This document shows positions 5,834 through 41,530 of a stretch of 41,530 nucleotides of DNA, piece after piece. This stretch comes from Atractiella rhizophila (lineage: Eukaryota). The notes under the pieces were generated by a model. It ran no database searches, was not told the origin of the DNA, and saw only the letters and a program-made list of their open reading frames with translations. The stretch covers positions 186,001 to 227,530 of the forward strand of contig MU271186.1 of assembly GCA_021432655.1 (NCBI GenBank), given 5' to 3'. A program made the translations under genes and the position numbers. How positions within the stretch are numbered: position 1 is the first letter of the stretch; every line of letters begins with the position of its first letter.

Positions 5834-8800
5834 ATGCCAACAGGATCTTATCCTGAAGCGGGTAATGCGTCACCCCCGTCTTCTCCTCAATCCGTCGCAG
5901 AAGAGGATGTCGAGGATTACACACGACTGTCTCCTACAATCAACGCCGTTACGACTGCCGATGATAATGCAGAGCTATCGTCACTACAACGGACATTCGC
6001 TGACCTTATGCTCGTGGAACGTGGCCTGCCGGACACTTTGTCTGGACCAAGTTCTGGCACTTGGCTCATCGGAGCAGAAAGCGGAAGGCAGGTGATCAAA
6101 CCCGAAGACATACCTTTACCACCGTCTCCGACAACATCATCATCTGAAAATACACCTGTATGGCTATCATCATCCGAAAATACACCTGCATGGCTATCTC
6201 CAACAGCTTCAGATGACGAATCCGACTCAAACGCAGGAACTTGGGCTTTCAGTTCTGGCATTCCACCCAGCTCAAACTTCTCAGCACCTCGACTACCCCT
6301 TGTAGGCGGACTAGGTCTTCGAGCGACGCGACGGACGCAGGGCCTAGCAGATGATCGATGGTCAACGTATCTCAGCAAGGGTATCAAGTTTTCCGTGCTT
6401 CCTGATCTTACGAAGCAGGCTGTTTTCTCTGGAAATTTGATTCGGTGCAGGATTAATTTGGACCCTCAACTCGCGGTCAGTAACTATAAGAAGATGGAGG
6501 CTATATTTTCTGGCGTTAGCACCGTTGAGGGAGAGCCGTGTGTTGTTTCCTTGTTCTTTGAAACACACAACGAATTTCTTTAACAACAGGTCAGAAGCTC
6601 ACACATTTTTCCAGCATGTAACATCGATCATTCCAAAGGACGATAATGTGGCCATGGAAGGAATGCCATATAGGGAATGGAGCTTTCATTTCGTGGTGCC
6701 TCATCACCTGAACTGTGCTTGCTCGGAAGCCAGAGTTCCCATCCCACCGACATATCCTGGCCGAGTCGATATCAAATATTCGATAAGGCTGAAAGGGCAG
6801 AGAAAAGAACAGTTCGCCATTCATGACCAGATATCGGTACCTGTTGAGGTGCGACAAGGGTATCAAAACCGTACCATCCTGCCACGACTGGTAGAGAATG
6901 TTGAAATAGATGGTGTGTGGAAGTTCGTGAGGTCAGGTGACCAGAGCACTAGCTTGAGCTTTTTGACCCTAGCAGAGGGACAGATTACACCTATTACAGT
7001 TGCTGAGGTGAGAATTTCCTAGGCTGCCTTGCCCGTTGCATATTTAAGTTGATGAGCTGCAATGCAGATCGCTTACCATGTTATCAAACGCAATTCTTTC
7101 CTCAGGACGCGGAACATATTCGTGAACTACTATTTCTCGTTACAACACAGCGGACGCTCTTCTTTTCCGAACGATACGCTCAGTTCGCTCATGGAGAGGC
7201 TTCAAATCTCATTGTCACCGCGGATACTGTTGAAGAAGGCAAGGGGTAATGGTGATCGTACACTCCCCCTCCCCTTGGCTTATACGATGCCGCTCAAGGT
7301 CAAGAAGGTCGGCGTGAGGATTCTTGATAGAGGCGTAAACACGACGTGGAGGTTTGAGGGGTGGATTCAGATGTCAGAGGACGAACATATGACTTGGAAT
7401 AGCTGTCATGCTGAACTGCAGGTATGCTGTCCCTATGATGTCTTGTTAACTCGATCAACCGTACTCGAAATAGGTGGTCCTGTCAGCAAAGCTGTCTCAT
7501 CCCGCCCTCTCTTCCGATATTAGGATTGAGATTCCCTTTGACCAGTCTTCTGCGATCGAAGTGGATATCGACGACCTTTCACTTACTCCCCTACCACATG
7601 ATCGATCCTCATATACTTCCCTTGTTACATCAACCGGCAACGCTCCATCTACGTCTCCTACCCAGCGTGCACCCAACACCTTTCCCGTTGATCACATGTA
7701 TGATGGCACGACAGCACAAGCTTTGCCGGCTGTTCTCCGTGGCAATTCCCTTGCTGCATCAACCAAAATTGATCATCCTCTCGTTCTCCGACACATCTCC
7801 TCATTTCAGTCATACCAATGCTGTCACCTCAGCTCAGGCACATGCTTTGAATTGAGCGATGACGTGTTACATGAACTGTTTGGGAATCGCCTGCTTCCGA
7901 GTCAAGTGGCATCCATCCCCAACTTCAGCTCTACTTCCATGCAGCCTGCAAGCGTCCCTAAGGCGGCCGAAATTCTGGAACCTGCAACATTTTATAACAA
8001 TCCACGTGTTCGCAACGGGGGTGTTGCTGACCATATTGCTCGTGAATCCCTCATCCGTCAGTATGTACGACCACCCCAGCATAATCCGTTGTCGAAGACC
8101 TCAAGTGGTTTTTGGTCTCCTTCAATACCGACTGTCTTGACTCGCGGTCATCAAGCTTTTTATCCCCGTTACGCCTTTCCGGAAAACACAAGCGTTGAGC
8201 CAGTGATTCCTAATTTCTCGTCCGACTCTTCCGCTTCCAAAGGAAGGGACCATTCCTCATCGACAATTCCAATGCCGGTTTCGAGCAACACCACCGTTAC
8301 GAACTTGTTAGCGATGCCATATGCGACAACGGTACAACCAGTTGTTGCTCCTCCGTGCCCATCTTCCAGCGATTCATCTTCCACAAAAAACGAGACTGCT
8401 GCCCTACCGTTGAGATTGATCAAGGTGTCGCCAAGAGGCAGAATCCTTTACATATACCCCATGGAGAACGACCTAATCTGCTTTTGGGATCACCAGAAGC
8501 TGAGAGTCGAGAGCAGGTTGCCTACTTTTCCTTCTGAACAGTTTCGAGATATGAAGACGAATAGGATGCGAAATAAATGGACCGAGCTGAAGTTCGATAA
8601 GGAAACATACGTGGAAGTTCGATTGGGTAAGGACATTGTCAATCCGTGGACTGGGAACGGTCAGGGTGAGGTCTCTTTGCAGGGAAAAGTCCATCTCTGA
8701 ATTCCTCTGAACAGAATGGTTCAAAGGACAGCTTCTTTACTTTGGTATGCCCTTTCCTCCCACTTGCCTACGACAAACTGAGGATACGTGGAAAGGAAAC

Positions 8801-9324: not shown

Positions 9325-10208
9325 TACCCTCTTCGGCGTTGTGCCTTTGTGTGTTAACTAAGCCTGTAATATATACGTAGTAGCCCACATTGTAATTACT
9401 TACCTCCATCGTCAGGTTCTCCGAAGGCTCGCTCCTTCAGCAGTTCCTTCGACGTTGTCGTCTGCTTCCTCTCTCACCTCCATGCATGTGCTACTCTTCG
9501 AACCATCTAGACATATAGCTAAATTTCGGGGTCTGAGAGTCGCTGGAAATGACTCCCCCACTTGTTGATTGCAACCATGGTGGTCTAGTGAAGTTGCAAG
9601 TGCCAAACTTCGCCAAAGGTCAAGCTGACTGCCTCCTCTAAGTTACATGCTTAGAAATCACAAATTATTGTATGCTCCCGGACTATCAACAGGTTGAGGT
9701 TCAGGCCTGTCTAGACCGGATCCCCCTTTGCGTCAAGCCCAGAAGAGGGATCTTCGCACACGAGCGAGGGCGGTGGTAGCATTCTCATTGGAGTCACCAG
9801 GCGATGGCGAATTGCGTTGCAGACGGTGACCAGTTATGGGACGCTTGGAGGACGTGATGGACTCTCTATGTTGTTGGACTCGACAAATCAAGTTTTGACG
9901 AAGAATGGGTGCGAGGTGCGGTTACTCTGCTGTTTGAAATCAGTGACATGCCCAGTAAAAAAGATGATTCAAAAGACAGCTCCAGTGCTAATACTTCGGC
10001 TTCACTTTATTCTACATCTCTTGTTAACTAATGAAAATTGTCAGTTAGGCGGTGATATAGAACTCATAACATGCGCTCTATAAGCAACATTCTTAATTTT
10101 ACGACTTAACTTCGGCATGCAGACAGCCGCTCGGGATGCTCCGTAGCCGCTTCAACTCCGCACTCCGACACAGCACCACGAAGAGAAGAAAAGAAGAGAA
10201 GAAGAAGG

Positions 10209-12628
10209 ATGGAGATCCTGCGCGCACACACCTCCACCCTGGATGCCGTGCGCTCTCGGCAGTCTACGCGGCGGGACCTGCTCTCACACCACTTCCGCGC
10301 CGACACCGTCGACCTCCTCTTCCCTGGCCCCACGCCGTCCCCCACGCCCTCGCCCTCGCCCTCTCGCTCACCCTCGCCTTCTTCCAACAGGCAGTCTAAC
10401 AGGGAGCGCTCGCTGTCACGGGATGATGGAGATGTGGAGGAGAAGATGGACGGCGTGGAGGAGGGTGGGGAGAGGGAGAGGGAGAGGGAGAAGGGAGGAA
10501 GCGCGGAGGAGCGGAAGAAGAGGAAGAAGGAGGCGTGGGGAGACATCTATGTTGAGGCTGAGGATTCGATACGGAACAACTACTCTTTGCACCACGTCAA
10601 CACCGGCGTGCGTCCACAGAACTTTGTATCCAACACCTCCCTCGCCACCCGCTTCTCAGAGTGCGTCATCCTTTCTTCTTGTGCTTGCTTCATGTTCATG
10701 TTTAATTGTGATCGAGCAAAGGTATCCGAAGCTGCAACACCTCCTTACGACCAAACATGCCCTCGTCTCCCAGCACGCCCATCCGCCAACCTACCTCTCC
10801 CTCCCCCCGCTCACCGCCGACCTGCAGGCACTGCACACCGCCATCCTCTCCCTATCGTCCAAGTTCGACTCCATACTCATCACCCCTCCGCTGCACATGA
10901 CCGCCGAACAGCTCGCACTCCTCCCGATCGGACAACTCGCGGGCGCGCCGAGTTTCGTTTGGATATGGGTTGGGGATGGGAGCAGAGGGAATGGGATTGG
11001 GTTGGAGAAGGGACGGGAGGTGTTGCTCAAGTGGGGTTACAGGTATTTCTCTCTACTTTTTATAAATGAAAATGACATGTTGACGGATTCATGTCGATGA
11101 GGATAGGAGGTGCGAAGACATCGTATGGCTTAAACCCTCCTCCAATAAAGATGGCAAGGAGAATAAGGACGGCAAGGAAGAAGGAACGACGACTCTCTTC
11201 ACCCATTCCAAAGAACACTGTCTCATGGGAATCCGCGGCACCGTCCGTCGTTCCACCGACTCTTGGATCGCACACTGCAACATCGACACCGACGTCATCG
11301 TCTGGTCCCCTCCATCTTCACCTGAGGGAGCAGAAGAAGGAGGACCGCAGAAGCCGCCGGAGATGTACACGCTCATCGAGAACTTTTGCAACGGCCTCAG
11401 ACGACTCGACCTCTTCGGTTCCACCCACACGTTACGTCCAGGATGGCTAACGGTGGGCGAAACCATCGATCCGTCCTCCCCTCCGTTCCAACAGGCCACA
11501 CGAAGGCTCAAAGAAGAATCCGCACCCGTCGCCACAGGCGGAGCAGGAAACGGAAACGGAAACGGCAGCGGATGGACGCCCATCCCGTACCGAAAAGAAG
11601 AGTACGACTCCCACTTCGCCCCGCCCCGCGGACACACCCTCCCCCAAACCCCCGAAATCGAGTCCCTCCGCCCCCGCAGCCCCGTCAGCTCTTCCCATCG
11701 CGACTCGCAGGCCTCACAGCTGGGCATGGGCGGTGGACTCGCCCCCAAAGGCTTGGGAAGGGGACGGGGTGCGCCGGTGGGCTTGAATATGATGCCGGGC
11801 GGAGCGCCGATGAGGAGGGGTATACAGAATGCCGCGGGTCAGGGCGGTCAGGCTGGGATGGGGATGGGCGTTGGAGGTGCGATGGGAGGCATCGGGGGCG
11901 CGATGGGTGGCGGTGCACAGAGTAGACCGCCCGGTCAGGTACCCAAACCGATGTCTGGGGGTGTGATGCTTGGAGCCGCGAGGAAGACCGGACCGCCTCA
12001 GCAGGCCCAGACCCAGACTCAACAGGGGATGGGAGGCGGTGGAGGGATGGTGGGGAATAATATGGGTGGGGGTGGCATGGGTGGCATGGGTGGAGGCGGA
12101 ATGGGTGGTGGAGGGATGAGTGGAGGTGGGATGGGGATGGGGAATATGGGAAACATGGGAAACATGGGCAATATGGGCAATATGGGGGGTATGGGGAATA
12201 ACATGGGGAGTATGGGTAACATGGGGAACATGGGGAATATGGGCGGAATGGGTATGGGAGGGATGGGAAACATGGGAATGGTAATTCTTCTCCTTTTCTC
12301 GTCCACATTTGATATTGACATTTTATGTGAACAGATGGGGATGCCCGACCTCTCCATGATGTCGACAGGAATGTCCATGCCTCCTATGACGTCCGCTACC
12401 AGCATGGGGGGTATGGGTGGGATGGGTGCCATGAGTGGCATGGGAGGGATGGGGTCCATGGGGTCCATGGGTGGCATGGGAGGATTCGATATGAGTTCGA
12501 TGATGGGATTCAATCCTATGATGAATATGGGAGGGATGGGCAATATGGGAATGGGCGGAATGGGGATGGGTGGAAACATGGGAGGAATGGGAGGAAGCGG
12601 TTACAACAACTTTAACGGTTCTTCGTGA
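10209..12628 (+). CDS. METTL14: mRNA m6A methyltransferase non-catalytic subunit (MT-A70 family, METTL14/Kar4-like)
   Basis: Spliced product (introns 10661-10721, 11043-11106, 12281-12334) contains RNNYSLHHVNTGVRPQNF, RFSEYPKL, KFDSILITPPL (degenerate DPPW site), SFVWIWVG, GREVLLKWGYRRCEDIVWLK, KEHCLMGIRGTVRRSTDSWIAHCNIDTDVI, KPPEMYTLIENFCNGLRRLDLFG and RPGWLTVG, all hallmark METTL14 blocks. Confidence 0.93.
11850..12610 (+). repeat. Coding low-complexity repeats (GGM/GNM/GM) in the METTL14 C-terminal tail
   Basis: Runs such as MGGGGMGGMGGGG and (MGN)n are encoded by imperfect 9-bp repeats (atgggnaay). Confidence 0.85.
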
Positions 12629-19300: not shown

Positions 19301-21449
19301 CTATCTCCACCTTGCTAATTGTTTCGCATCCCCTCCAGTCCCACTCCGAGGTCTCACGCTCTGATTAAGAGGTCCTTTCGCCGCCGTCGACTGTTTGAGC
19401 ACTGGCAAGCCGGTTCCAGCAGGACTATTCACACTCTTCCGCCTAGGTGGAGGGATTCGTGACGTTGTGCTGCTGGACAGAGACAGCCCAGAAGAGGTCA
19501 GATCCTCCAATCCGATCGGTGAAGTCGCGCCGCTCAACGAGGATCTCTTGCTGGCCTCGCTCGCCGTGCTGACCATTGAGGTGCGCTTCGAGAGTGTGTT
19601 CGCCGGTGGAATCACGTCCGTCAACTCTGAGGGCGTGGGCGAGCGAGTCGTAGGCGCACCTGGAGTAGTGGGACGAGAGGTGGCGGAGATGGTGGCTGGG
19701 GTGGAGGAGAGACGAGAATGGGAACGACGGGCGAGCTTGCCTCCTGGAGTCGCTGTTGCGGATGGAGCAGCGAAGGACTGGTGAAGAGAAGAACGACGAG
19801 GGTTTGACGAGAGTGATGTCGGTTCTGTGATAGGCGATGATTTCCCGGATAGAGAGGTTGATGCAGTGGCGGTGGATTTAGACGAATCGCTGGCATGTCG
19901 GGAGGTGACGGACTGACGGCCCGCGACAGAGGAGCCGAATATGTCCTTCTTGCTGTTTGTGCGCACCAAGCCTGCCCCTGAAGTCCTTGGGACAGGTATT
20001 CCAGCTCGTGGAAGCGCACGACGGGAGTCTAGACGAGCTGTCATGGTCTTCATCTTTTCCGTCTGTCCTCCCACACTCTGTTCAGCATCCCGATACCGAA
20101 AGGACTAAATCAGGGACAGGAATGGACGAACCATAGTCTTCATCTCCTTCAACACGCTCTCCGCCCTCTGTTCTTTGGCGCTTTTCGGAATACCAGTGAG
20201 ATTCCTCGCTCCAACAGATCTCGGCAGTGCTGTAGAAGCAGTAAGAGACGGTGCGTTCGACATTGTTGCCTTCATGGAGATGGACGGCGAGGGGATCCTT
20301 GACGGGGAAACGGGGAGGCGGGACATATTCGAGGGAATCCTTCTCGTCGGGGACGGGGATGGCGCAATGTTAGGTGGAGGATGGATCTCTTTTGTCCCAG
20401 CAGCGGAGGCAATCCGCTTGCGAGGCGTCGACTCGTCTTTATCGCTGAAGAGATCATCGGAGCTCGCCGAGAGAGTGCTCAATCTGTGAGATTGGGTTGG
20501 GGATCCAATACGGGAAGTGGTGAGTGGACGAGATTTCGGTGCTGTTCCATTGGCGAATGATGTGGGCGAACTCGCACGGATGGTACGTGAGAGCCGGATC
20601 TGAGCTTCTTGTTCTTGTGATACGGTTCGTAGACGCGCAATCTCCTCGTGCAGATTTGACATATCCTTCTTGATTGAGTCGTTCTCCTCCTTGTATCCTC
20701 GGAATATAGCCAGTTCTTCTAATGTATCTCGCAATTCGTCCTTCACGCGCTGAATCTCTTCCTCTAACTGAGCTTTATTGATCAGCTCGTCTTCCAACAA
20801 AGTCGCTCGCTCAATTGCACGATCGTGGCGCTGTTCAAGATCTTGTAAGGTCGTCTCCATGGCCCTGTTTATCGAATCAACCAACCGTACACCGACGTAG
20901 CAAGAAGTAGGCAACAGCAGAGACGTACCTCTCGGATTTCTCCAACTCGTCGTTATCATTCTCCATGTCCCTCAGTCTGTCCTTCAACTGCTGTTGGCTA
21001 GCTCTAAGCGTCTCGACCTCACGCTGCATTTTGGTCATACTGCTCGAATTCTCGCGAACGGCATTTTGATATTTTCCCTACACCACGCAATCACCAGCAC
21101 GGACCATCAATACCATTGCCCTTCGCCTCCCATTGCGGTAGGGAAAGAAAGTGGCGCACCTTCCAATCCTCCACATCCGCCCCCAACCTTTCCACCTTCG
21201 CCTTCAACTCCTTCTCCCTCACCTCAGTGCTCGCCAGCTCCCTCTCCAGCTCATACTCCAGCTCCTTGCTGCTCGACTGAAAGTCCTCTAAGGCGGAACG
21301 AGTATCTTCTAAGGTTGCAGATAGCGATTGGGAGAGAGAACGGTAGTGCGCCAACTCGTCTTCCAGGCTTCCGAACACCCTGAATGCATAACTCATTAAC
21401 CAAATCGTTTTGAGCTTAGAAATAGTGCGTACTGCGTTTCGTCCTCCAT
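19301..21449 (-). CDS. NUDE: Nuclear distribution protein NudE/Nde1 (dynein regulator), multi-exon
   Basis: SLEDELAHYR...LEDFQSSSKELEYELERELA...EDWK-GKYQ, LRDMENDNDELEKSER and LQDLEQRHDRAIERATLLEDEL...QRVKDELRD match the NudE coiled coil. A Ser/Pro/Arg-rich tail follows. ATG at 21449. Confidence 0.9.
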
Positions 21450-21914
21450 CTTGTCGCGTTTGAAAGCTAAAGGTCCCTTAGAAGACACTATGTCGTTGCG
21501 TCGAAGGAGCGTTGATACCCAAACGTCCTAATCCTCGTTATCGTGCCAGTTCGCGCGCACCATAGCAGAAGAACTCACGGGCAGCTATATGCGATTAGTT
21601 TGGTGCGGCTAGGCGTAGATATTGGAGGACTGAAACGTCCTTCGTCGTGTTGTGTGGTTGGTTCTAGTTCCTGACCACGAATCACGTGGGTTCACTCATG
21701 CCTTGATGTTTGAGCATGAGCATGCTGGCCTGTTAGCTATTCAGTTAGCTGTTGACCGATTAACATTCACGGTACCTTATGGCTATGGTTACTTTCAGTG
21801 CATTCACTGTCAATTGAGGGATGCACTTTTGAGCTATGGCTGCTTGTTGCATTGCTTGCCGGGCCTTGTCCTATGCATTACACACTAATTTATACGAAAC
21901 CAATTTTCTTTCAG

Positions 21915-22258
21915 AGATTAGACCTAACTAGACGTATGAATCTGAATATTACATATGAGTTTGTAATATCACGTCTATCGTGAACGAAGGTCACATAGTC
22001 TTTTTAGACAGCGATGAGATGATGATAATGCACAGACATTTCCATTGCTCAAAATACCAGTACTTTCCAGGCGTGCAGTACATGCATGACGGCCCATGTT
22101 GGGTATGGAACGAGTTAAACTTGAAACATCCCTTCTATGTGAACATTGATGATGCCCAAGAGGCTTACTTCCTCAATTTGTCAGTGCATTCCATGCCACG
22201 CTTGTCTCCACTGACAGCGTCTTGTACTGGGTTTGCTAATCTACCCTTGTATTTTCAG
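21915..22258 (+). pseudogene. Possible degenerate exon of an unknown gene
   Basis: TTTCAG acceptor at 21914 and GTCAGT donor at 22180 bracket a protein-like frame IRPN*TYESEYYI*VCNITSIVNEGHIVFLDSDE...DAQEAYFLN with in-frame TAG (21929) and TGA (21956). No family was recognised. Confidence 0.3.
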
Positions 22259-22611
22259 TACAGGTATCACCACTATCGAGCCAAAATACCCTTGCCCGGA
22301 CACTTGCCCACCTTCACCGTTTTTATCTCGCCGATCGAGTCGAATTTGATAGCACTATCGGTTCCTTCGTGCGAGTTTGTTTACGAACGCACACCTTGCT
22401 CGCTCCGTCGTCTCGGAATACAAAGCTTGATCTCCTCCTCGCACCTTGCATTTTCCACCGACCGAAATTTATCCAAGCTGAGCAACATGCTCCTCTAAAG
22501 CATTGTTCGCATCCTGCTACATGATGGGAATATATGGAGATCTGTTTAAAGGGAGGACGAATTGCTCGAGCTTACACCTCGCGATAACAGCAGTCAACCA
22601 AGTTACGGGAA

Positions 22612-24692
22612 ATGAAGGCTCCACACACTCATACCGTCGTTCTCACGCTTCCAGCATGGGGTGAGCTCCTCCGCGCCATCTCCCTGCATGCGCAATAAAC
22701 TGACCGTTGAGTATGCAGGGCATCTCCGTCCACTCTTCACCATCATCTCCACTGTCATCCGTCGTTACCCAGGACACGTCTTCTCCATCGTCATCGAACC
22801 TCACGTGCTCCCCATGGCAAAAGCTGAATTCGAGCAACACGAGAACGACCTCAAGGCTACAGGCGAGGGGGTTTCAATCGCCGACTCTATTCGTTTCGTC
22901 GTTGTTGGAAAGCCCAAAGTGAAAGAAGACTTCTCCGATGCTTTCGTCCTCATCTGCAAAGCTGCAATGTACGAAACCGTCGAACAGCTCTTGCCCGCCC
23001 TACAGGAGGGAAAACCGTTCACAGACGTGCAAGGAACGGTACATTATGCTGAGGAGACGAGTGGGGAGAAGTGGCCCATCCCCACAGTCATTTGGGAGGA
23101 CTTCGCTATTGGTGCCATCTCAACGAGGCTGAGAAGAGAAGGGAAGCATAATATGAAGTGTCTTGACTGGGTTTCTTTCCCGTTTTATGCGTGGTGCAAG
23201 TATGTGTTTCCTTGAAAGAGCAAGACATGGGGGGCTGATGATGTATCATTGAAGTATGACTTTCGGAGCTGAAGACGGAGGGATGGCCCATATCCCGGGT
23301 GAAGCGAAAGCAATCCTTGACGATCCTGAGAGACGAGGACAGCGTTCTCTCGTCGACATAACAGACGAGGTCCGTCCTTTTGACCTTCACCAAGGCCTGA
23401 TCGGTGCTGACTGTTCTATGTTATGCCTGTCATAGCTTATCAGGGAGAATCCACGCTTCAGTGATGGTTTACACAAGTTTCCAGGCTTCCCGATCCGATA
23501 TCAATATGAACAAAACCCTCACCACATGTTTGAAACCCGCAACATCGCAGCCAATTTCGAAGGCATGTTGGAGCTCGATCGCGATAGTGACGGGTTGATT
23601 GTGCATTCTGTTGAGGGATTTGTGAGTGTCACTCCTGTGGGTTGAAAATGCGTGATTTCGGGTGCATAGGAACCGCCAGAACTTCTTCGAGTTGCAAGGG
23701 AAAATTACGGCACCAAGGCCATCTTCCTCGTCGGCGCTCAGCAGTCCACAGCCGTCTGGGATGGCACTTGGATAAAACAGAGTCGAGCATCTCCCCAAGG
23801 CGCTTCCGATTTTGCTTTCCTTGACGAGATGCAGTCGAAGTTTGGCGCACGCTCCGTCGTGATTGTCAGTTTCGGCTCCTTATTCTGGCCGTAAGCAGGC
23901 ATCTGTTCCCTTCGCGTTAGATAACTCATCCTTCGAAGGGTTAAACATCCCGAGCTCGTAGAGGATATCATCCAGACTCTACTCGACTTCGAACCACAAA
24001 TTCCGTTCATCTTTGTATCTGCTTCGCCTAATGCAAACCTCTCGCCAGATTTAGTGAAAAAGGCAGAGGAATCTGGAAGAGCAAGATTCAGCCCATGGGT
24101 GGACCAACAAGCGGTGCTCCAACATTCAGTTCGTACCCAGTCATAAATAGGAACTTGAACTGAAGAGTGATACCCAGGCAGTATCTACTGTCATCTATCA
24201 CGGTGGAATGAACTCGACAATCGAGACTATAATCAATGGCTTACCCACGATCATTCTTCCTTATGGAGCCGATCGTCAGTTTCGCCTATTCTTGCCCATT
24301 TGGTTCTAACCAGAAAGGCAGAACCGATGACTGCTATTCATCTAGAGCAACACCTCAACTGCGCTATTGAGCTGCTTCAATTCCGTACTGACGCTCGCAA
24401 CACGGTTGCGTATCGAAATGGAGGAGTGAAGATTCATGGAACATCTGAAGCTAGGAGATCAGAGCTCAAAGATGCGTTGTACCGGTTAACACAGACCAAA
24501 GAAGGAGAGGAAAAGAGAGAAAACGCGAAGAAAGTTTCCCAGATTTGGAGAGATGCAAGGGTCGAAGGAGGCTCGGCTTGGAAAGAGTTCCAAAAGTTGG
24601 ACAAGTGGATGAGGGGTGTTGAGGAAATTAAAGGATTCAAGCTAAATGGCGTCAACGGGCACTTCAATGGGGTTGATAATTCTAGCAATTGA
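22612..24692 (+). CDS. UDP-glycosyltransferase (GT1 family), copy 1
   Basis: MKAPHTHTVVLTLPAWGHLRPL (catalytic His), VIWEDF (partner Asp), VVIVSFGS, and a PSPG-like box WVDQQAVLQHS-AVSTVIYHGGMNSTIETIINGLPTIILPYGADQ. Seven introns spliced in frame. Confidence 0.92.
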
Positions 24693-24752
24693 AGCGCCAA
24701 TGCTGAATCTGTAGTCTAACATTCACTTTCAGTATCATTGTACCAGAGATAT

Positions 24753-26672
24753 TCACATGGTGGCGGTGACCGCTTCTTTAGTTATCATCCATCTATCAAG
24801 CTCTCTAAACTGTTTCCACGCGCTACCATTCTCTTTGATGCTGTTTCTCCACGTTGTCCCTAACTGCCCCACATTTTTCCTCTTCTTGTCGGCCTCATCC
24901 CCTGCCCTCATCCGTTGCAGCACATCCTTCAGCTCCTTCCTACGCGCCTCGCTTGTTCCCTCGATTTTGGTTCCACCATTCCGATATGCTAAACCCTTCT
25001 CCAACGCTTCCCCTGTGCGGAATTGCAACAATTCGATTCCTACATCGAAGTACTCTTCTGAGCTAAGAATTATCGCATTCGTTCCTTGATCTCCGTGGAA
25101 AGGCATTAAAATCATGGGCATTTCGAAGATTAGCGCTTCAGTGGATGAGTTCATGCCACCATGTGTAAGGAAAAGGCCAAGCCCTGGGTGCTGGAAAATG
25201 AGAGTTTGTGGAACCCATGGCAGAAAGAGACACTGAGGTGAAGTTTTGATACGTTCGGCGAGGGCAGAAGACAAGTTTGCCAGCGGCGACGAGAGAGCAA
25301 AGAGGAAGGGAATCGGCGGCTGCATGTTCAGCAATGTCTCAACGATGTCTTCCACGATCTCCGGATGACGAGCCCTGGTGAAAGTCAGCTAAAAGCCCTA
25401 TGGTCCAAATTGACAACGTACGGCCAGAAAAACGATCCAAAACTAATGTACAACACGCTCCTTGCTCCGAACTCCTCCTCGCATTTATCCAAAAATTTGA
25501 ACACAGCCGTGTCTCCGTCTTTTGTAGCCAGAGGTCTCGCGAGTGTTCCAGCAGCTTTCGAATCGCCAGCAGTCCAAACGGTTGGGGGTTGTTGAGCACC
25601 AACAAGGAAAAGAGGGCGAATGCCGTTCTTTCCCAAGATTTGTTGGCCTGCCATGAGGGCTTCGGGTGGTTCCTTCCACAAGGAATCAATGACAATCAGT
25701 GGCGACGGAGAAGAAGACTTACGTATTCTTCAATAGTTTGAAAGATAATACCGTCAACGTCATTGTTCAATTCAAGAAGGCGTGAAAATATCTTGTCGAC
25801 ATCCTTCGGCACTTCAGGCTCCTGCGGGGTTGCTTCCCATTCATATACGATTGGTAGCCCAGGAGTATTGATAAGGCGATCAGGCTGCCTCCTGGGATCG
25901 TGAAAAGCGAACTATAAGAAAGTTTAGGCGTGCGAACGAAACTAAAAGAAGCGCACATATGCTGCAATTTCGTCTATTGACCGTCCCCGTCTCTCTTCCG
26001 GGTTTTCAAAAGTAGTTTTGGCGTCTTCGATGATGTTGCCCTGCCCTCCAAACTCTGCCGGAGCCACGGTCCTGATTCAAAAGAACCATCAGTCAAAGTT
26101 ACGACATGGTCGCGGCCCTACCTCAGCCAGGCATGCAGCGGCGTGCCAATCCATTCCAAAATCGGTAAATGGTGTTTGCCTTCGGCTCTCAATCTTGTTG
26201 ACGCTGCGCCACCAAACATGTCCTCCCAAATACAGCATGGTTGGGGGAATGTTTTGAGATCGTGAACGACTCCAAGCGCGTCCGCCACTTCTCCCTTCTC
26301 GCCAAAAGCAGCTAGCAGCCTCTCGAGGGTAGTGTAGAGATCAGCCTGAGATTTGAGAAAGAAGTTTTCAATGGCAGATGGATTGGCATTTGGTTCACCA
26401 ACAGCGATAAAATCGATCGCGCAGGAGAGATTCTGGGAACTCAACTCCTGCTCAAGTTTCGGTACTAATTCACCTTGGGCCAAGAAGGTGACATGGTATC
26501 CGAACAAGTTTGCAACTGTCGCAGCGAGATTGAGAAGTGGCCGTGCATGACCCTAACAAGTTTGCAGGCTCTGTTAACGTCTCAAAGGGATATGCGCATG
26601 AATGCTTACCCAGCTAGGAGTGCAAACGACAATGATCCCTCTCCGATTCAGGCTGGACATATTGATAGGCAT
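24753..26672 (-). CDS. UDP-glycosyltransferase (GT1 family), copy 2
   Basis: IIVVCTPSW-GHARPLL, CIWEDM, VLYISFGSFFWP, and a PSPG-like box WVPQTLIFQHPGLGLFLTHGGMNSSTEALIFEMPMILMPFHGDQ. Start is ATG 26672 (or 26660). Confidence 0.92.
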
Positions 26673-27030
26673 AGGCACAACTAGTATTCAGCGTACGTCT
26701 CTCGCTTTGTTCATATACTTCCCATCTTTTTACAAACCGAGATACTCCCCACGCCTTCTACTACATCCTTGCTGAAGATGTTCGCGCAGAAGAAAGGCTA
26801 ATTTCGGTTAAAGATCTCGAGGGAAGCGACCACCGATAGAGGAGGCGGCGGAGGATGCACTTCGCAAACCTTGGATATTTACAAGGGAGCTCCCCACGGG
26901 GAAGAGTGAAGATCCGCACTGTAGTCGGGCAATCCCCTAATAAGCGCTTGATTCTCAGAAGGAGCGACTGCGATGGATTTCATCTGCCTGTAACTCAGCC
27001 GCACTCCGCCAAGCATTCAGCTGTCCAAAC

Positions 27031-29107
27031 ATGGGACCTCCAGACTCCGTTCCCAAAACAGGCCCGCATATTCTATGTACTACCATTCCACTCTGGGCAA
27101 GTTCTCCCTTTGATTGCTCTCTCAATATTGAGCAGATAATGATGAAGTAATAAAGGGACACTGCCGCTGTCTCATCGCTTTCAGCTGTAGTCTTCTCCTC
27201 CGTTTCCCTGACTACACCATCAGCATTATTCTCTCACCCTTCCTTCTCGATCAGGCGAATCGTGAAATCGCCAAGTGGACTCTCTCTCCTACCCAATGCA
27301 AATCACTCCGCCTCATCGCAGCAAATGCATCTGATCCACCAGAACCGGGAGTACCTCTCAATCTCCTTTCCGCTGCGCAAAGAGATCTTGGAAGCACGCT
27401 TCGCCGTGTTCTGCACTCAGTAGAGAAAGAAACCGCCTTTGAAGATGTAAATGGAGTGAAACACGACTTCGGAATCGCTGTGAGAAAGCCTTGCGTCATT
27501 TTCGAGGATTGCATGGGAGGAGCTTGGGGGATACGATTGAAAGAGGAAGGACTGCACATCCTCAAAGTTGTTGATTTCATTAGCACCAGCCTCTATGGAT
27601 GGACCCAGTATGTGGTCTGCTCCCCAGCGATTTCCTCAGAATGAAAGCTATACAGGACGCCAGCGGGACCAGAAGACGGAGGAATGGGCAACGTCCCTGC
27701 CGATGCCCAGGCTTTGGTCTCGACTTCATCTAATCCTTCTGAGCAAGACTTGATCGGAATAATGGACACTGTTCGCTCTCTTTGTCTGCCTAATCGATTG
27801 ACGAGACGGTTTGTAGATGATGCGAAATAATCCACGCTTCAAAGATGGCATGCATCGATACGCAGGATTTCCAGATCGATATGAATTCGAACAAGCTCCA
27901 CAAGCGATTTTAGAGAGCCGGATAGTAGCTGAGGCGCTCCCCGAAATGCTCAGACTGAGCAATGAGAGTGACGCCTTGATCATTCACAGCATTGAAGAGT
28001 TCGTAAGTCGGACCAGTCTCACAGAGTATGCGGAGGCAGTTCATATGTTGAACAGGAGCCTCCTGCGGCGCTCAAGGCAGGGTTGCGCATCCATGGAAAG
28101 GAAGGGAAGAAACCGCTCTTCCTTGTTGGTCCTCAGCTGGCGCCGTCTACCTGGAACTCACTGCCAGAGCATGTCACGGACATTCCACCTGCCGTTACTC
28201 ACATTGGAGTGAACGATCAACAGGACGCAGAGCCAGATTTTAACATCGAATACCTGGACGATATGCAGGCGAAATATGGAAAGCGAAGCGTGGTATACGT
28301 GAGCTTTGGCTCCATAGTTTGGCCGTGTGTGTTTGTCATGTCCCAATATGTACTTTTAATGACGAGGGGATGCAGGATCACAACGCCTGAAATCGTGCGT
28401 ACTATCGTCACGACATTGCTATCGCTAGATCCTCCCACACCTTTCCTTTTCGCGACTGCTTCGCCAGCTGCCTCCGTAGATCCGGAGCTGCAGAAAATGG
28501 CAGAGAAGTCAGGAAAGGGAAGATTTAGCAAATGGGTCGATCAAACGAGAGTATTAAGACACGAGGTGCGCAACTTGTTATCTTCCGCAAAATCATACAT
28601 AATCAAGAATGAGCAAAGGCTATCGGTGCGTTCCTGACGCACGGCGGCCTCAACGGAGTCATGGAAACGATGCTTTGTGGGATTCCGATGATCGTACTTC
28701 CTTTTGGAGGAGACCGTCAGTCATTTGGTCCTAGGCATCCTCATCGAATTGATCACCTATACACAGAGCCCCTGACTGCTCTCCATCTGTCCTTGAACCT
28801 CAAAGTGGGAATCGAGCTTCTACAGTTCCGCACTGGTCCCCAAAACACAATCGCCTTTCGTCCAGATCTCGTAACGGGGACAGAGCACACGACAATCGAC
28901 CAAAGTGACGAGAGCAGAGCACAAGAATTGAAAAATGCTCTGAAGCTAATTCTGCAAGGAGAAGAAGGGAGGAAAATGAGAACAACAGTGGAAGGATGGG
29001 GAAAGGTTTTCTTCGACAGCGCCAGGGAAAATGGATCGGCTTGGAGAATGATTGGAAAGTTGGACGGATGGTTGAAAGATCAAGACAAAATCTTAAATGT
29101 ACTTTAG
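27031..29107 (+). CDS. UDP-glycosyltransferase (GT1 family), copy 3
   Basis: MGPPDSVPKTGPHILCTTIPLW-GHCRCLI (via a GC-AG intron at 27097-27155), VIFEDC, VVYVSFGS, and a PSPG-like box WVDQTRVLRHE-AIGAFLTHGGLNGVMETMLCGIPMIVLPFGGDQ. Confidence 0.9.
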
Positions 29108-29246
29108 ATTCAGGCAAAAGCCAATTGATAATGGAGCAATTTTACCACTTCACATAAAGAGCTTACAATACATCCACGTCTCCCCAGTCATCCTACACCT
29201 ATCCTGAGCTTGCCACCGCCTCCTATTCAACGATGCACCAAATTCT

Positions 29247-30296
29247 TCACTTTGATCCAATTATGCTGTTCAGTGGCGAGGCTCGATGATGTTTCGATGT
29301 TTCGGCAGGGGAGGCCATAAACTCTAATTCCCTATCATTCAAGCTCCATCCTTCCACCCCTTCCCTGATCTTCGATACGTCAACAATCCCGCTATTTGTC
29401 CTGGACATGGTTGGCGTTTCATTCTTTCTTGGAGTATTCGACCCCGAACCCGTCGCTCACCTTGAAAGAGACGCTTTCGATTTCGGTGTTAAAGTACCAG
29501 CAGCTGAAGCTGTGCCAAAGCAAAACAAGTTAATCTCAAAGGCTCCCCTTCCTCAGACGCGAGAGCCACCCAGTCTTCTTCCTTCAAATCGACAAGAGAG
29601 GGAGTCGGACAAGACCCCGCTAGTGTTTGGAAACAACGGACATCTTCGTCCCGCTCCTAACGGAGAGGATACGAGCGTCTGGGCTAGGGTCTTCAAATGC
29701 AGCATGGTGGACAGAGGAAACAAGTGATGGAATGGTACGATGGATGGAAGAGACGTTGAAGCCAGGTTTAATCGTGCTCGCAAAGGAGGATCCACAGGCA
29801 TAAACATGGGAAGAGACCTGAAACATAGCTGGTGGTAGCGGTGGGAATGGAACCTCGGCAGGCTTTTCTGAAGCAATATGAACGGCAGAGGCCGGAGATG
29901 CTGCCGGAAGAGTGTCGATGTTCACTTTCTTCTTCGAAGCAAGCATCTTCTGTTGAAGTTTCGACAGCTTCTTCCCACCAACAGGACTTGCATCCACCAT
30001 CGTACCTTGTGTTTCTGCTACTTTGCTCGCTTGATTACCCGAAGTAGCGGTGGTAGCCTTCCGTCTGGAAATGGAGAGAGCTTGTAATGCAGAGATTGGC
30101 TGATCGTCTTCCATTGCTTCGTGATCGTCGTCTTGAAGGAAGAGAAGCCTGAACCTTGCGCATTCAAGCTCAGAAGGGAAACACAAACTTTTTTAGTCGA
30201 TTTATCTCTCCTCTTCCTCTCTTTTTGCAATGCCCAGTCCGTCGTACGTTCCACATGGAAGTATGAGTCCCACATACCTAGTTCCAGTTGGTTCTT
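29247..30296 (-). pseudogene. HBS1/SKI7-like locus lacking the GTPase domain (functional Ski7-like gene or partial, decaying duplicate)
   Basis: HBS1_N-like helix LGMWDSYFHVERTTDWAL, then ISALQALSISRRK, KLSKLQQKMLASKKK, ACGSSFASTI and AFEDPSPDARILSVRSGTK (similar to the Ski7/HBS1L-short F..PSPDD.V motif), ending at the stop at 29620. A further Ser/Thr-rich exon starts at 29509 and ends at 29247 with no GHVDAGKS P-loop. No convincing start or acidic N-terminus was found. Confidence 0.55.
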
Positions 30297-30909
30297 CTAC
30301 TTCCAAGTACATTTCGAGCAATTAGCAGCGGAGCTAACCGGAGTAAGACACCACGAGGAACCGGAGATTGATGAGTAATTTGCAGTCGTTTGCAGCCTTA
30401 ACATTTGACAATGTTGAGGCTGTTGAGGCCTTCGAAGAGTTGGGGAGAAATGACAAGACGATGGATATTTGAACAGTGTTGCAATTGCCAAAGCAGTAAC
30501 GTCGTGGCATGATTGGTGGGATCTTGGTGCGTTGCGTTTGTCAGCTTCGACTTGCTCGTCAGGCCATCAGGCATCATAAATGCTCAATCTCCCAGGGTCT
30601 ACACCACACATTTACCGAGTAGTATAACGCAGAGGCGTCAGAAAGTGAGGCTCATTCCTCCGTATCGGGTGGAACGAATATGAAAACAAGAAAATGAGCC
30701 TGAAAGTGATCTATGGCAAACATGCTTCTTGTTTATAAGAGATAATCCCCTCTCCCTGGATTTCCTCTAACGCCGCTTCATTATTCGTTGGTGTGGACTT
30801 CTCTCTTCCTTCTTTCTTTCTTTGCGGCTTCTGCTTGTTCAAACTGAAGAAGAGATGACCTTTCCACGCAAAGTTCGTTCCGAGTCGGTTATGGCTATCT
30901 CGCTGCCTA

Positions 30910-30942
30910 TACTTACCAATAGGTGTACTTACTAATAGGTGT
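30910..30942. repeat. 16-bp tandem duplication
   Basis: tacttaccaataggtg / tacttactaataggtg (1 mismatch). Confidence 0.85.
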
Positions 30943-31416
30943 TTGAATGCTTCGTGCTTGTGCTTGTACCTATCTATTCTTACTCTGTTTCCCACAATAG
31001 TTGAGCACCTGTGCAGTCCAACTGCCTTTGCAATCGGCGCTGGAAACACTTTTCAAACACGTTCTCAGGTACTCCCTCCCAAACTTCGACTACAGTGAGT
31101 TTCCGCGCCGGATCTTCCATCCTCGCTTCTCAACTCTACACGCCCCTCCCTATGGCCGCTTTCAATGGTCAATACCCCCACACCACCGAATCACTGTCCA
31201 TGCAAATTTGGATTAGCTTACGGTGACGGAGAACACGCAGATGAAGATCTGGAGAAGGACGTCGAGGTACGGAGGGGATGGCGAAATTAGGGTTACAAGA
31301 CGAACAGCAACGTCTTTCTTTACTCAATGGGGAATTTTTCCTCAAATTATCCAGAGATAGGTAAAAGCATAACGGCATGTTATAAGGTATGATTGGGGAA
31401 CGGCATCCGATGGAAC

Positions 31417-33658
31417 ATGATGGCCTCTACTGTGACCATGATGTTTCAGTGGGAGAAGCTGGGTGCAGTGGTCTGTATCTCCTTATCTCTAAATGTGCGT
31501 GAACATTCTATACGGCTCCCGTCTCTGCAAGGTAATAGCTGACGCAGTTGTGCTATGGCAGTACATCTACCTCTCATATCCATATTATCGTGCAATTATT
31601 GTCCTATGGCCGACACTATCCCACTATCTGTCAGTCTTAACTGGTCATGCTTTTCCCAATCTCCCACAACTTGCTTCCTTCTGGCTCTCGTATGCACTTT
31701 ATTTGTGCTTGGTTTTCACGGCAGTGTTCCTCTATCGACTTTCGCCCCTTCATCCACTCGCCCCTTTCCCAGGACCAAAGCTGGCGAAACTCAACATGTG
31801 GTGGTACCTTCCTCAGGCTGTCAAAGGGACAGAGAGATGGGACATGAAAGAGCTGCACGAAAAGTACGGTGATTTTGTCAGGATTGGTACGCTTCTATGT
31901 CTTTATCGGTGATCAATATCTGAGAGAGATGCAATAGGCCCCAACCACCTCTGCATACGGAGTGTGGACGCTTTAAAGGAGGTCTATTCGTACAGAGCTA
32001 ATGTGAAAAGGAGCAATTGGTACGTCCAGGTTTCTTATCACATAATAGCCCCTTGCCAAGGATGAAAGTAGGTACGATGCTCTCGACGATCCCAAGCATC
32101 CCGGAGTCAAGAGTAAGTTCGATTACTTCTTGATTCCCGTTCTGTTCCTTGTCATAACACTTCTCAGGTCTCATGGGTATGCGCGAGAAGGGACCACATT
32201 CTGAAAGGAGGAGGATGTGGGAACCTTTGCTAGGGATCGAAGGGTGCGCTTCTTTCAACATATTTCCAGATATCTGACAAAATTCGAAATAAAAAGTCTC
32301 GCGCGTTTTCGACCCATAATGAGAGCAAAACTCTCTGAGCTCGTACATCATCTGGAACGCTTATCTGAAGATGGACCCATTTGCTTGTCTGACTGGTTTA
32401 GTTTCTTTCAGGTATGTCTTCTTTCCATGTTCAACATTGTGAGGAGAGAGATAAATCGTCTCTTAGGTCGACGTCATGGGGTTTGTCCTTGTACCACCCT
32501 AACTTTCATTCGCTTTGACTAATTTCGATAGCGAACTCACGTTCTCCGGAGGTTTCACCCTCATGCGTGACGGGGAAGACAAGAATGGCTACCTACGAGA
32601 CATAGGTCTGCTCATGCGACTCGTCAAAGCACTAGGACACATGCAATTCCTCCTCCCGTTATTCTCTCTGCTTCCCCAGTCACTGATCCAACCCGGGCTG
32701 CGATGGAAGGCTGAAGAGCTGGTGAAAAAGAGGACGAACAGGAATGCTGAATCATTCAAGGATCTTTATTACTTTCTAGTGGGTTCCTTCTCCTTGACGC
32801 TCCTGGTCATTTGATGTGTGAATGGCCAGCTAGACGAGGAGAACGAAGGAAATAAACAGCGGAAGAACATTGACGAATACTCTTTGTACAATGACGCTGC
32901 TTTAGCAATAATTGCTGGTTTGCCAAAGTTCCATGCACATTGAAATACTAATGTAGTTATGCAGGAGGAGAAACAACTGCGATCACCTTGACATACCTCT
33001 TCTACGCGCTCCTTCAGTCCGGCTGGCTCAGCAAACTGCAGGCTGAAATTGATTCCGCATTTCCAGACAAGGAGATTGACGACATTTCTTTGCAAAACCT
33101 TCGTCTGTCTTATTCTGTCAGAGTCTCGTATATTTAACAACATTACAGGTTCCCTTCCTCTCCTCACAGCTGTGATCAACGAATCGCAGCGATTAAATCC
33201 CACAGTTAGCTCCGGCCTGCCACGAGAGATTGTCGATACTCCGCTACTGATCGATGGACGGTTTATACCCGTTGGAACCACTGTTTGCGTTCCATTCTAT
33301 GCAGTCGCGAGAGATGAGCGATACTTCTATCACCCTGACGAATTTCGACCTCAGAGGTGGTTGCCCTCGCGTCCTGAGAAGGAAACCTTTGAAGCGAAAG
33401 CCTCCGTGCCCTTCAGCTCCGGTGAGTTATCCATTCATGTGATCATTCACAGGTGAGAAATATTCTGTAGGTGCCTATTCTTGTATCGGGAAGAGTCTTG
33501 CGATGGAGGAGCTCCGCACTGTGTTGGTGGTCTTGCTCAAACACTTTGAGTTCAACCTTTCAGATGACTTCAACGAGGACAAGTTTCTGAGCAGCAGCAG
33601 GGACTTTTTGGCTATGACCAATCCTCCATTGGAAGTATACGTTAAGAAGAGACATTAA
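31417..33658 (+). CDS. Cytochrome P450 monooxygenase (CYP5035/CYP53-clan-like), 12 exons
   Basis: YRLSPLHPLAPFPGPKLAKL, LHEKYGDFVRIGPNHL, I-helix AIIAGGETTA, ExxR (INESQRL), EFRPQRW and heme motif PFSSGAYSCIGKSLA. Eleven GT..AG introns spliced in frame. Stop TAA at 33656-33658. The family assignment is by motif resemblance only. Confidence 0.93.
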
Positions 33659-34265
33659 GGATTTTTTTGAATCTTGAAATGCTATGTAATTATCAATTTT
33701 TGTGCCGTTTCACCCTAAGTTGTGCGAACAAGGAAACAGAATAAGGTTCCGACGCCGAAGAGAAAAACAAATTCCCTCCGCCCTTTGTTACAACAGGTAA
33801 TCCTATTGTATCACAGATGTGCGGAAATAGATCTATCATCCAATTTTTGTGGATAAATTCCCACGTTGACATAGACTTTGGCCCTAATCGCATGGAGAAT
33901 GCTGAAAATCGATAATCAAAGCCCATACCCGAATGGAATCCCGAATGCATGGCTATTAGCAGCACCGTCATTTCAAAAGAATAAGGAAACACTGTCACCG
34001 CGTCTAACTCACGGTCTCCAGGGACCGACGTAGGATTTGCGAGGAAAGACTGTTAGAAGTTAATCGTGCGTGATATGCAGAAAGCAGTCACAGCAGCTGC
34101 TTTGCGCATTAGGAAAATTTTTCCTTTTAACCGGCTCGTCCCTTGACTTATCAGCGTAGCACAGGGCTGTAATGCCTAAGAATCATAGTAGATAAAAGCG
34201 AGCTTGCATCCTCTACCGAAAGATTCAGCGCACAACACTTCTGTGAACATCTCTGACAGCTCAAT

Positions 34266-35389
34266 ATGTCCACCATATTAAGTAGTCTCTGGCATGGGGC
34301 GAAAGTTTTGTACTATCTGTCATATTCTGACATCAAAACCGTAACACTTCCTGTGCTCGCATTTTCACTCTCCATTGTTCCCTGGTCCGGTTTCATCAGG
34401 ACATTCTTGACAGCTTTCTGGCTTCAAAGCTTGATAGCAGAATGGTGTTTCTCAAATCAAAGTTCCGGTGCGTTAAATCCCAACTGCATGTGCCTGATTC
34501 CAAACTATGTCACAGCAAATGCGTTGGCTGAAGACATCAACAACAAGCCTTATCGACCCATACCGAGCGGGATGATGACCTTAAAAACAGCTCGAAGGAT
34601 TCGATGGTTCATGCCTTTTTTCAACATCATTCAGTCCGCCATTCTCGGAAGCAGAACTACGGTCTACGCTACGATTTCGCTAAGCATCATTCTTTGGATT
34701 CATAACGACCTTGAAGTGAGCAGAAAGTTTTATGCAAAAAATTTTCTTGCTGGCGCTTGCTTTCCTGCGCTTGAAATCGGTTGCATGACTGTAGCCAGTA
34801 CGTTTTCATCAATCTATGATGGTTCGTCCTGACGCATGCGATGACGAAAGCGGCAGGTCAGGCTCTCAATTTCCACCAGATCGTCTCCGTCGTATTCTCC
34901 AGTTCGTCCATTCAGTCTGTCTTGAATCAAACTGAGAATACAACATGGTGCAGCGCTAGTCAACATGCTGACGATGCACGCTCAAGATTTTCCCGACGTC
35001 GTCGGTGACGCAGCGGCAGGACGAAAGACGTTCCCTCTGGTCACACCTTGGGGAGCACGCTTCTTTCTCGTTACTGTCCTCTGTCTTTCTACCGTTGGAT
35101 CCATCTTCATCTCTGCGGTGCACCCAGCCTTGATATGGCTTCAGATTGCCTTCCTTATTGTTACTTGTGGAAGGTACCTCCTCATAAGGAACCAACCTAA
35201 GAGAGAGATGATTTCTTATTGGATATATGATGTGCGTTGATTATTCCACATGTTCACAGCCAGAATTGACGCGAATGGTAATAGTTCTGGCTCGCCTTTT
35301 GCCATGCTTGTCTCTCGAAGTTGAATCCAGCCGTGGTACCAATCACCACTCAAGGATTTGTCCAGGCTGTCCAAGCGCACTGGATATAA
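34266..35389 (+). CDS. UbiA-family membrane prenyltransferase / putative intramembrane terpene cyclase
   Basis: Multiple hydrophobic helices. Motif 1 is SNQSSANALAEDINNKPYRPIPSG (after intron 34468-34515), followed by IHND...KN. Motif 2 is TMHAQDFPDVVGDAAAGRKTFPL. Stop TAA at 35387-35389. Confidence 0.88.
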
Positions 35390-40641: not shown

Positions 40642-40675
40642 TAACACTTGTTGAGATCAACCACCAGCGGTTAAG

Positions 40676-41530
40676 ATGCTTCAGGGCACTTGTAGAGGAG
40701 CTTGCCTATGCGGTAAGGTAACTTACACTATCCCAATACCTTCCACCAACGAAAAGATTGAAGCCTGGTCATGTCTGTGCGACTACTGCCGCGTTTCATC
40801 TGGGACATTCTTCCAGACTTTCCTTGCCGTCCTCCGACCCGAGTTGAAGGTCACCTCACATCCTGAACTCGTCACGGAGATCTCTCTCATGCCAGGGAGG
40901 ACGAGGTCGTTCTGCTCCGTTTGTAGCACGCCTTTGTTTTGGAGCAGAGAAGGTAGCGAGTGGATTCAAGCCACCGTAGCAACGTTGGACAAGGAGGACG
41001 TCGTGCGCTATGTGAGGTCGCTAGATTACATCTGCAACGCCGGTGCAACCTGTGATGGGCTTGGTGGGATGGTCGATCTTACTCGCTGGCAGCTCAAGGA
41101 GGGCCAGCAGATCACAGCTGGGAATAAAGGTCCAGCCATGGATCTGAGCGAAGCCAAAAAGAAAGACGGAAGGGAAATACTTCCTTCTCTCCCTGAAGAG
41201 ATTATGGGCGCTTGCGCTTGCGAAAACGTTCAATATCACGTCAAAACACCTACCGAGGCAGCTCTGAAGGCTTTGGTGGACGATAAACAGACAGGATGGA
41301 CCGAAGAGAAGTGGAGAGAACGCTGCGGAATTGAGAAGGATGCGCAGAGAGGATGGAAGTATCGCGCGTCTTCGTGTCACTGTGACAGCTGTATGTTTCT
41401 TCTTGCTTCTAAGGAATAGTAATAACATGGGTAGAAAGGTGTTCGATGGACGGGTTCGACGGCAGGAGTTTGTATGGCGACTATTCCTCTACCTTTCTTC
41501 AACCTTACGGTCGCTTCCCAACCATCCCCC
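40676..41530 (+). CDS. Tandem GFA/CENP-V (Mss4-like) zinc-binding protein, 3' truncated
   Basis: Domain 1: GACLCG...CLCDYCR...RSFCSVCSTPLFW. Domain 2: GACACENVQY...SCHCDSC-RR, across an intron at ~41391-41434. Continues past the window end. Confidence 0.85.

Follow-up and report, generated by a model that had tools for sequence, protein, structure and literature searches.

In the basidiomycete Hericium erinaceus, the eri cluster combines the UbiA-type cyclase EriG with the cytochrome P450s (P450s) EriA, EriC, and EriI and with EriJ, which xylosylates a P450-made hydroxyl; it yields a diterpene, the cyathane xyloside erinacine, and also carries a geranylgeranyl diphosphate (GGPP) synthase, oxidoreductases, and an ATP-binding cassette (ABC) transporter (PMC8463280, PMC11969743). 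The tps1 cluster of Antrodia cinnamomea pairs the UbiA-type bisabolene synthase Tps1A with the P450 Tps1H, and its report marks UbiA-type terpene synthases by the motifs NxxxG/AxxxD and QDxxDxxxD and gives D100, D215, D218, D222, and Y155 as required in Tps1A (PMC9835599). The bra cluster of Annulohypoxylon truncatum makes a brasilane sesquiterpene glycoside with a cyclase, a P450, and a glycosyltransferase (PMC8403587), and a further cyclase and P450 example has been described (PMC12434612). Here, we analyze a locus of Atractiella rhizophila (Atractiellomycetes, Pucciniomycotina), a fungus that lives associated with roots. The window, by which we mean the whole stretch of 41,530 nucleotides at positions 186,001 to 227,530 of contig MU271186.1 in an assembly of 51.5 Mb in 1998 contigs, holds a UbiA-fold enzyme, a P450, and three GT1-type UDP-glycosyltransferases (UGTs). 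Motifs, predicted fold, and co-duplication indicate that the P450 and UbiA genes likely form a two-gene terpene module. The features of the block, in window coordinates, are as follows:

22612–24692, + strand: UGT1, GT1-type UDP-glycosyltransferase; 569 amino acids, 8 exons, stop-free spliced model
26660–24753, − strand: UGT2, GT1-type UDP-glycosyltransferase; 552 amino acids, 6 exons; PF00201 E 3.8e-12
27031–29107, + strand: UGT3, GT1-type UDP-glycosyltransferase; 571 amino acids, 8 exons; PF00201 E 1.3e-8
29297–30356 (borders approximate), − strand: insertion with a truncated HBS1 copy, the copy at 29335–30274
31420–33658, + strand: cytochrome P450; 12 exons; PF00067 E 3.5e-24
34266–35389, + strand: UbiA-fold membrane enzyme, candidate terpene synthase; 305 amino acids, 5 exons; PF01040

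The locus beside known clusters

Compared by gene content, the block between NudE and FAM32A resembles eri in having a UbiA-type enzyme, a P450, and a UGT together, and it differs in having one P450 rather than three, three UGTs rather than one, neither a GGPP synthase nor a transporter, and a host from another subphylum. With no GGPP synthase, the locus is not an eri cluster. The architecture of cyclase, P450, and glycosyltransferase is nevertheless already known from eri and bra, the bra cyclase being reportedly a soluble class I enzyme. The window shares with bra this minimal set, whereas bra has a single N-acetylglucosamine transferase and a linkage kept across many ascomycetes (PMC8403587). 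As in tps1, where Tps1H oxidizes the Tps1A scaffold, a membrane UbiA-type enzyme with QDxxDxxxD stands beside a P450; unlike Tps1A, with its NxxxG/AxxxD and essential Tyr155, the window enzyme has an N-to-D span of 10 and His130, and tps1 is capped by a methyltransferase with no UGT described in the accessible part of its report (PMC9835599), against three UGTs here. The 10-residue N-to-D motif I together with QDxxDxxxD is also found in the sub-group of Pb_BisA (Penicillium brasilianum) and BibS, Pb_BisA having the longer form of motif I from N95 to D105; these are ascomycete enzymes, and Pb_BisA was assigned by phylogeny and expression in a paper whose main text does not contain the string "glycos" (PMC11745945). 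The term "non-canonical," which the original prediction gave to this locus, suits the enzyme class and not the layout, since a UbiA cyclase with a P450 and a UGT has been published as eri, a precedent missing from that prediction. The novelty of the locus lies in its lineage, in a private UbiA family of five members, and in a set of three UGTs that no GGPP synthase accompanies.

Spliced, stop-free models and Pfam matches agree on three UGTs, a P450, and a UbiA gene, flanked by NudE (NUDE_C) to the left and by FAM32A to the right, as the original prediction had proposed, and its further statements that the P450 and UbiA genes are adjacent and co-oriented and that the block lacks a transporter and a transcription factor hold as well: the two genes are neighbors on the + strand with a gap of 607 bp, and the NudE–FAM32A interval showed neither a transporter nor a transcription factor, nor any prenyl-diphosphate synthase. 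Introns of all five genes measure 45–66 bases, the first intron of UGT3 being GC-AG. UGT2 is convergent with UGT1 and divergent from UGT3, with 370 bp between UGT2 and UGT3. Pfam was scanned over 34 window frames as single exons; scanned in this way, the UbiA match lay under the curated cut-off and the four UGT1 exons scanned gave none, while the UGT1 model is 37–39% identical to UGT2 and UGT3 (E ~1e-134). The P450 has 555 amino acids in our model and 553 in the public model P0162, a discrepancy confined to the first intron, and its motifs are intact (AGGETT with the I-helix Thr, ESQR as ExxR, the PERF-like PQRW, and FxxGxYxCIG with the heme Cys). It may resemble CYP5035-type enzymes. A micro-exon of 14 bases (32467–32480) is kept in its paralogues on two other contigs, C208 and C47.

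The UbiA enzyme and its neighboring P450

The window UbiA model is 98% identical to the public allele protein P0001, whose predicted structure is all-helical with a mean predicted local distance difference test score (pLDDT) of 93.8 from a 79-row alignment, and whose best Foldseek matches are digeranylgeranylglyceryl phosphate (DGGGP) synthase (6m31/7bpu) and archaeal UbiA at a template modeling (TM) score of ~0.6. Motif II, QDxxDxxxD, is present as Q189-D190-F-P-D193-V-V-G-D197, and the motif I region reads N64-Q65..E73-D74 with an N-to-D span of 10. In place of NDxxDxxxD, the first motif of UbiA prenyltransferases of the COQ2/MenA type, which is absent, stands this NQ..ED, and every UbiA score against the NCBIfam prenyltransferase models fell far below the cut-off. 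Among 157 aligned relatives, 54 carry NQ......ED with the same span, although equality of span is no proof of kinship. Taken together, the window enzyme most plausibly acts like a UbiA terpene synthase, yet it is not placed in the Tps1A sub-group.

A protein search returned 894 representatives at E ≤ 0.001, and among the best 150 of these the closest non-Atractiella relatives are 33–35% identical. Ten of these 150 were looked up; nine bore species names, all Agaricomycetes, and no protein name came with a tested function. In a tree of 27 rows, 21 of them selected from outside Atractiella, the six modeled Atractiella rows form a single clade (100/100) with the window gene sister to that of C208 (96/89). 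P0003 belongs to Agaricomycetes, as do the nine top relatives that bear names, and the clade joins two of these at 97/94 on a long branch. Horizontal transfer from Agaricomycetes is not claimed, given the long branch and the selected outside rows.

Within the assembly, the fourth UbiA exon matches ten places, which include five intact-looking groups (window/C241, C208, C194, C67/C939, and C25/C68/C560) that are ~44–59% identical to each other. Apart from these groups there is a fragment on C2, 98% identical to C25, whose immediate neighbors are frames for Helitron and Pif1 helicase (C2:1501-11500, 5055-7331). Contig C241 carries the region once more, at 94–98% identity to the window, and we read it as the other allele.

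At C208, a P450 stands directly upstream of the UbiA gene in the same order and orientation, ~570 bp apart, and is 63% identical to the window P450; the only other close P450 paralogue found, on C47, is 54% identical and has no UbiA gene within the 30 kb examined. Between the window and C208 pairs, synonymous sites are saturated (proportion of differing synonymous sites, pS, 0.81), nonsynonymous divergence (dN) is 0.37 and 0.28, and the frames are open. Because the UbiA genes are sisters, the P450 is the closest one found, and synonymous sites are saturated, the pair must have been duplicated as a unit long ago and has stayed together twice. This twice-kept pair is the best evidence here for a functional coupling of P450 and UbiA. 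No conserved block was found between the promoters of the two pairs.

This observation was further compared with metagenome loci of distant UbiA relatives (23–45% identity), for which 79 loci gave 51 clusters and 26 with at least 5 kb. A P450 was present in 5 of the 26, against an expected 0.5–1.4 if one P450 per 250–700 kb is assumed. With genes placed uniformly, at least one of the five UbiA loci would have a P450 no more than 3 kb away in 4–6% of cases.

Transcription was examined in assembled contigs from four public runs of three studies, one recorded as RNA and three presumed to be so; the contigs are of low depth (2–6) and demonstrate the presence of transcripts, not their amount or timing. 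UbiA introns 34468–34515 and 34798–34850 are removed in contigs of runs X1 and X3, UGT1 introns 24129–24177 and 24275–24321 in X1 and X4, and UGT3 intron 28716–28766 in X1 and X3, while X3 holds a spliced P450 contig. UGT2 has contig cover with no spliced joint among the matches listed. Run X3 covers all five genes, UbiA is covered in X1 and X3 only, and the P450 is uncovered in X1; the flanking NudE gene is equally patchy, which makes these gaps uninformative.

Some further features surround the C208 pair. Two TRI12-like transporter genes lie upstream as weak matches (E 2e-3 and 2e-4, below cut-off) and a weak GT8 match lies ~2 kb downstream, so that of the two clusters the one on C208 may be more complete. 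A WD40 gene near the pair, which we take to be LIS1/NudF-like, recalls the NudE gene flanking the window pair, probably by coincidence.

Glycosyltransferases and allelic differences

All three UGTs carry a WGH His (His18 in UGT1) and a 44-residue box of the form W..Q..H.G.N..E..DQ that ends in DQ. We take the former to be the N-terminal catalytic His and the latter to be a box like that of plant secondary product glycosyltransferases (PSPG). The array is old, since its members are mutually only 36–39% identical, and the same figure rules out a recent tandem duplication. UGT2 groups with five dispersed genes, of which one is frameshifted, its closest paralogues lying on C370 (67%), C134 (59%), and C398 (56%). 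A Pfam scan of 93 frames, one C208 flank included, found no terpene gene or P450 among the matches at the dispersed loci C370, C134, C83, and C398b, whose neighbors are proteases, a sugar transporter, a ribosomal protein, and a mannosidase. The UGT paralogue on C312 (4250-6110) has five frameshifts and is sister to the intact C370 gene. Near the UbiA relatives, positions 1–38000 of C208 contain no UGT, and tblastn with the three UGT queries found no UGT of this type at any of the 26 metagenome loci, a search that distant UGTs could escape.

The distance from the end of UGT3 to the P450 is 2.3 kb in the window and ~1.2 kb in the allele that lacks the HBS1 insertion. Window positions 29335–30274 are 94% identical to C97 and C807, of which C97 holds a full HBS1 with HBS1_N and GTPase domains. 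The window copy begins within the gene, ends ahead of the GTPase part, and differs from its parent by four small indels, and it is missing from C241, where the alignment skips from 29296 to ~30450. It is evidently a recent insertion into one allele and carries no weight against a cluster, and the HBS1/SKI7 fragment that the original prediction saw as interrupting the block is thus a truncated, allele-specific copy and no gene of the block. A stand-alone Ski7-like gene was considered and rejected, given that the piece lacks both a start and the GTPase part and carries indels, that the other allele does not have it, and that RNA contigs extend beyond it at 29335 and 30271. In basidiomycetes, HBS1/SKI7 is described as one alternatively spliced gene (PMC3597508). 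A 58-base piece after the copy (30295–30352) recurs on C187 and also opens a 5-kb repeat of which C46 has two copies, and the insertion is possibly a gene-fragment capture by a mobile element. A 59-base micro-inversion separates the alleles at window 30397–30455.

The second allele of UGT3 is intact (96.8% identical; dN 0.015, synonymous divergence, dS, 0.10). For UGT2, C241:53555-54749 corresponds to window 25768–26963, the 5′ half of the gene, reversed and not complemented; it is 99.2% identical when read backwards and adjoins a 1.7-kb N gap. This is an assembly artifact through which gene callers would miss UGT2, and we rejected the reading that the other allele has lost the gene, as its 5′ half is present there in this reversed form. 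C241:56465-67968 contains two versions of window 21148–23971 (the beginning of UGT1 at its 5′ end with the sequence upstream), 94.6% mutually identical and separated by 25 N, which makes three versions with that of the window; the doubling is either mis-scaffolding or a real duplication.

Elsewhere in the window, an MT-A70 methyltransferase gene with a long low-complexity, Gly/Met-rich tail lies at 10110–12628, and a GFA-domain gene (PF04828) at 40655–41530, where the contig ends, seems to be the start of a second GFA-like repeat.

A candidate pathway and its alternatives

Polyprenyl synthase matches (PF00348) fall into three groups in this genome, at C18, C64/C849, and C4/C816 only, none in the block. 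Farnesyl diphosphate (FPP) is favored over a dedicated GGPP supply because the block has no polyprenyl synthase, in contrast to eri with its own enzyme for GGPP. Terpene synthases of class I were also matched 7–9 kb from P450 matches, at C239:15769-23441 and C136:14148-23553, which are candidates for further terpene clusters of this genome.

The explanation that we consider best, and that we favor tentatively, is a P450–UbiA terpene module beside a separate, old UGT array. The UbiA enzyme would use D74, D190, D193, and D197 to coordinate Mg2+ and thereby bind a prenyl diphosphate, for which FPP is the likeliest candidate; Mg2+-assisted loss of diphosphate would lead to carbocation cyclization and to the release of a sesquiterpene hydrocarbon or alcohol, which the P450 encoded upstream would oxidize to an alcohol or acid. 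The three UGTs would be small-molecule glycosyltransferases adjoining the module and not a dedicated part of it.

Several observations weigh against this explanation. On the side of the enzyme, the terpene-cyclase-type motifs of the original prediction hold for QDxxDxxxD and for a motif I of Pb_BisA span, but not for the strict NxxxG/AxxxD of span 8 that goes with the Tps1A/Fma-TC sub-group; this strict pattern occurs in 10 of the 157 relatives and is therefore not a mark of the wider group. His130 occupies the place of Tps1A Tyr155, an equivalence set by spacing (60 residues ahead of the first Asp of motif II, compare Y155–D215) without a Tps1A alignment. On the side of the pair, the C208 UbiA gene is open only through a weak GC-AG intron, the window and C208 pairs stem from one event and hence are not independent, and around the other three intact UbiA groups the 10–25 kb examined contain neither a P450 nor a UGT. 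On the side of the array, UGT1 and UGT3 form a group of their own (100/100) with no close paralogue elsewhere in the genome, and in a uniform model with hand-set inputs (ten UGT places, 51 Mb, three pair copies) a UGT would lie no more than 5 kb from a pair copy only ~0.6% of the time, a post hoc figure that leaves aside other tailoring families equally eye-catching.

These last two points also favor a terpenoid-glycoside cluster, in which at least one UGT, most plausibly UGT1 or UGT3, would glycosylate, in the manner of EriJ, the hydroxyl or carboxyl that the P450 introduces. We regard this as possible though somewhat doubtful. It gains from the short distance between UGT3 and the P450, particularly in the allele without the insertion, from the cover of all five genes in run X3, and from the precedents of eri (PMC8463280, PMC11969743) and bra (PMC8403587). 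It is opposed by the sister pair on C208 without a UGT, by the age of the array and the occurrence of its family elsewhere in the genome outside clusters, by the absence of a UGT of this type at the 26 distant-relative loci, and by promoters that share no word above chance (one common 7-mer, a count reached in 36% of 300 null draws, whose mean was 0.58); moreover, one P450 would offer few acceptor groups for three transferases. Proximity is what links the UGTs to the pair, and either C208 lost this link or the window pair landed beside an existing array. Of the sesquiterpenoid (or prenyl-aromatic) glycoside pathway originally predicted, a UbiA-type terpene synthase acting with the neighboring P450 is supported by motifs, fold, the C208 pair, and the 5 of 26 loci, while membership of the UGTs is neither shown nor refuted. 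A more speculative extension, which we consider unlikely, is that this fungus has its own His-type UbiA family and that the three UGTs act in turn on a P450-oxidized sesquiterpene to give a di- or tri-glycosylated, surfactant-like terpenoid.

It is rather improbable that the UbiA enzyme is instead a prenyltransferase or an acyclic terpene alcohol synthase, with the P450 and perhaps the UGTs tailoring that product. Such a role could be read from His130 where Tps1A requires Tyr (PMC9835599), from the best solved folds being prenyltransferases, and from relatives outside Atractiella at no more than 35% identity, with no tested function among the ten names looked up from the best 150 of 894. His is, however, a natural residue at this place (28 of the 157 relatives, against Tyr in 120) and is found in all five Atractiella UbiA models checked; the block has no supplier of an aromatic acceptor, and the enzyme lacks NDxxDxxxD while carrying the QDxxDxxxD that marks UbiA-type terpene synthases (PMC9835599). 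Very improbable is a gathering of five unrelated specialized-metabolism genes in a variable chromosome spot: the region accepts insertions such as the HBS1 copy, chance would bring a P450 this near to a UbiA gene in 4–6% of cases, and three of the five intact UbiA groups lack a P450 neighbor, but in both copies the two genes have kept their adjacency and their open frames although synonymous sites are saturated, and P450s recur beside UbiA relatives of other fungi more often than the assumed densities predict.

The favored module with a separate array would represent a small candidate pathway in a fungal lineage of scarcely described chemistry. No literature linking UbiA, terpene, and Pucciniomycotina was found in a search whose coverage left out most subscription journals, and among the papers listed that name Atractiella rhizophila none seemed chemical as judged by title or abstract opening. 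Within the literature searched, sequential glycosylation by the three UGTs, if true, would give Pucciniomycotina its first described pathway to a terpenoid glycoside and its first described UbiA cyclase. If no UGT acts on the product, the locus would be an ordinary terpene synthase and P450 pair; if one does, the logic of erinacine and brasilane would extend to a new subphylum and to a root symbiont. The five intact UbiA groups, all with His in place of the usual Tyr, offer a natural experiment on that residue.

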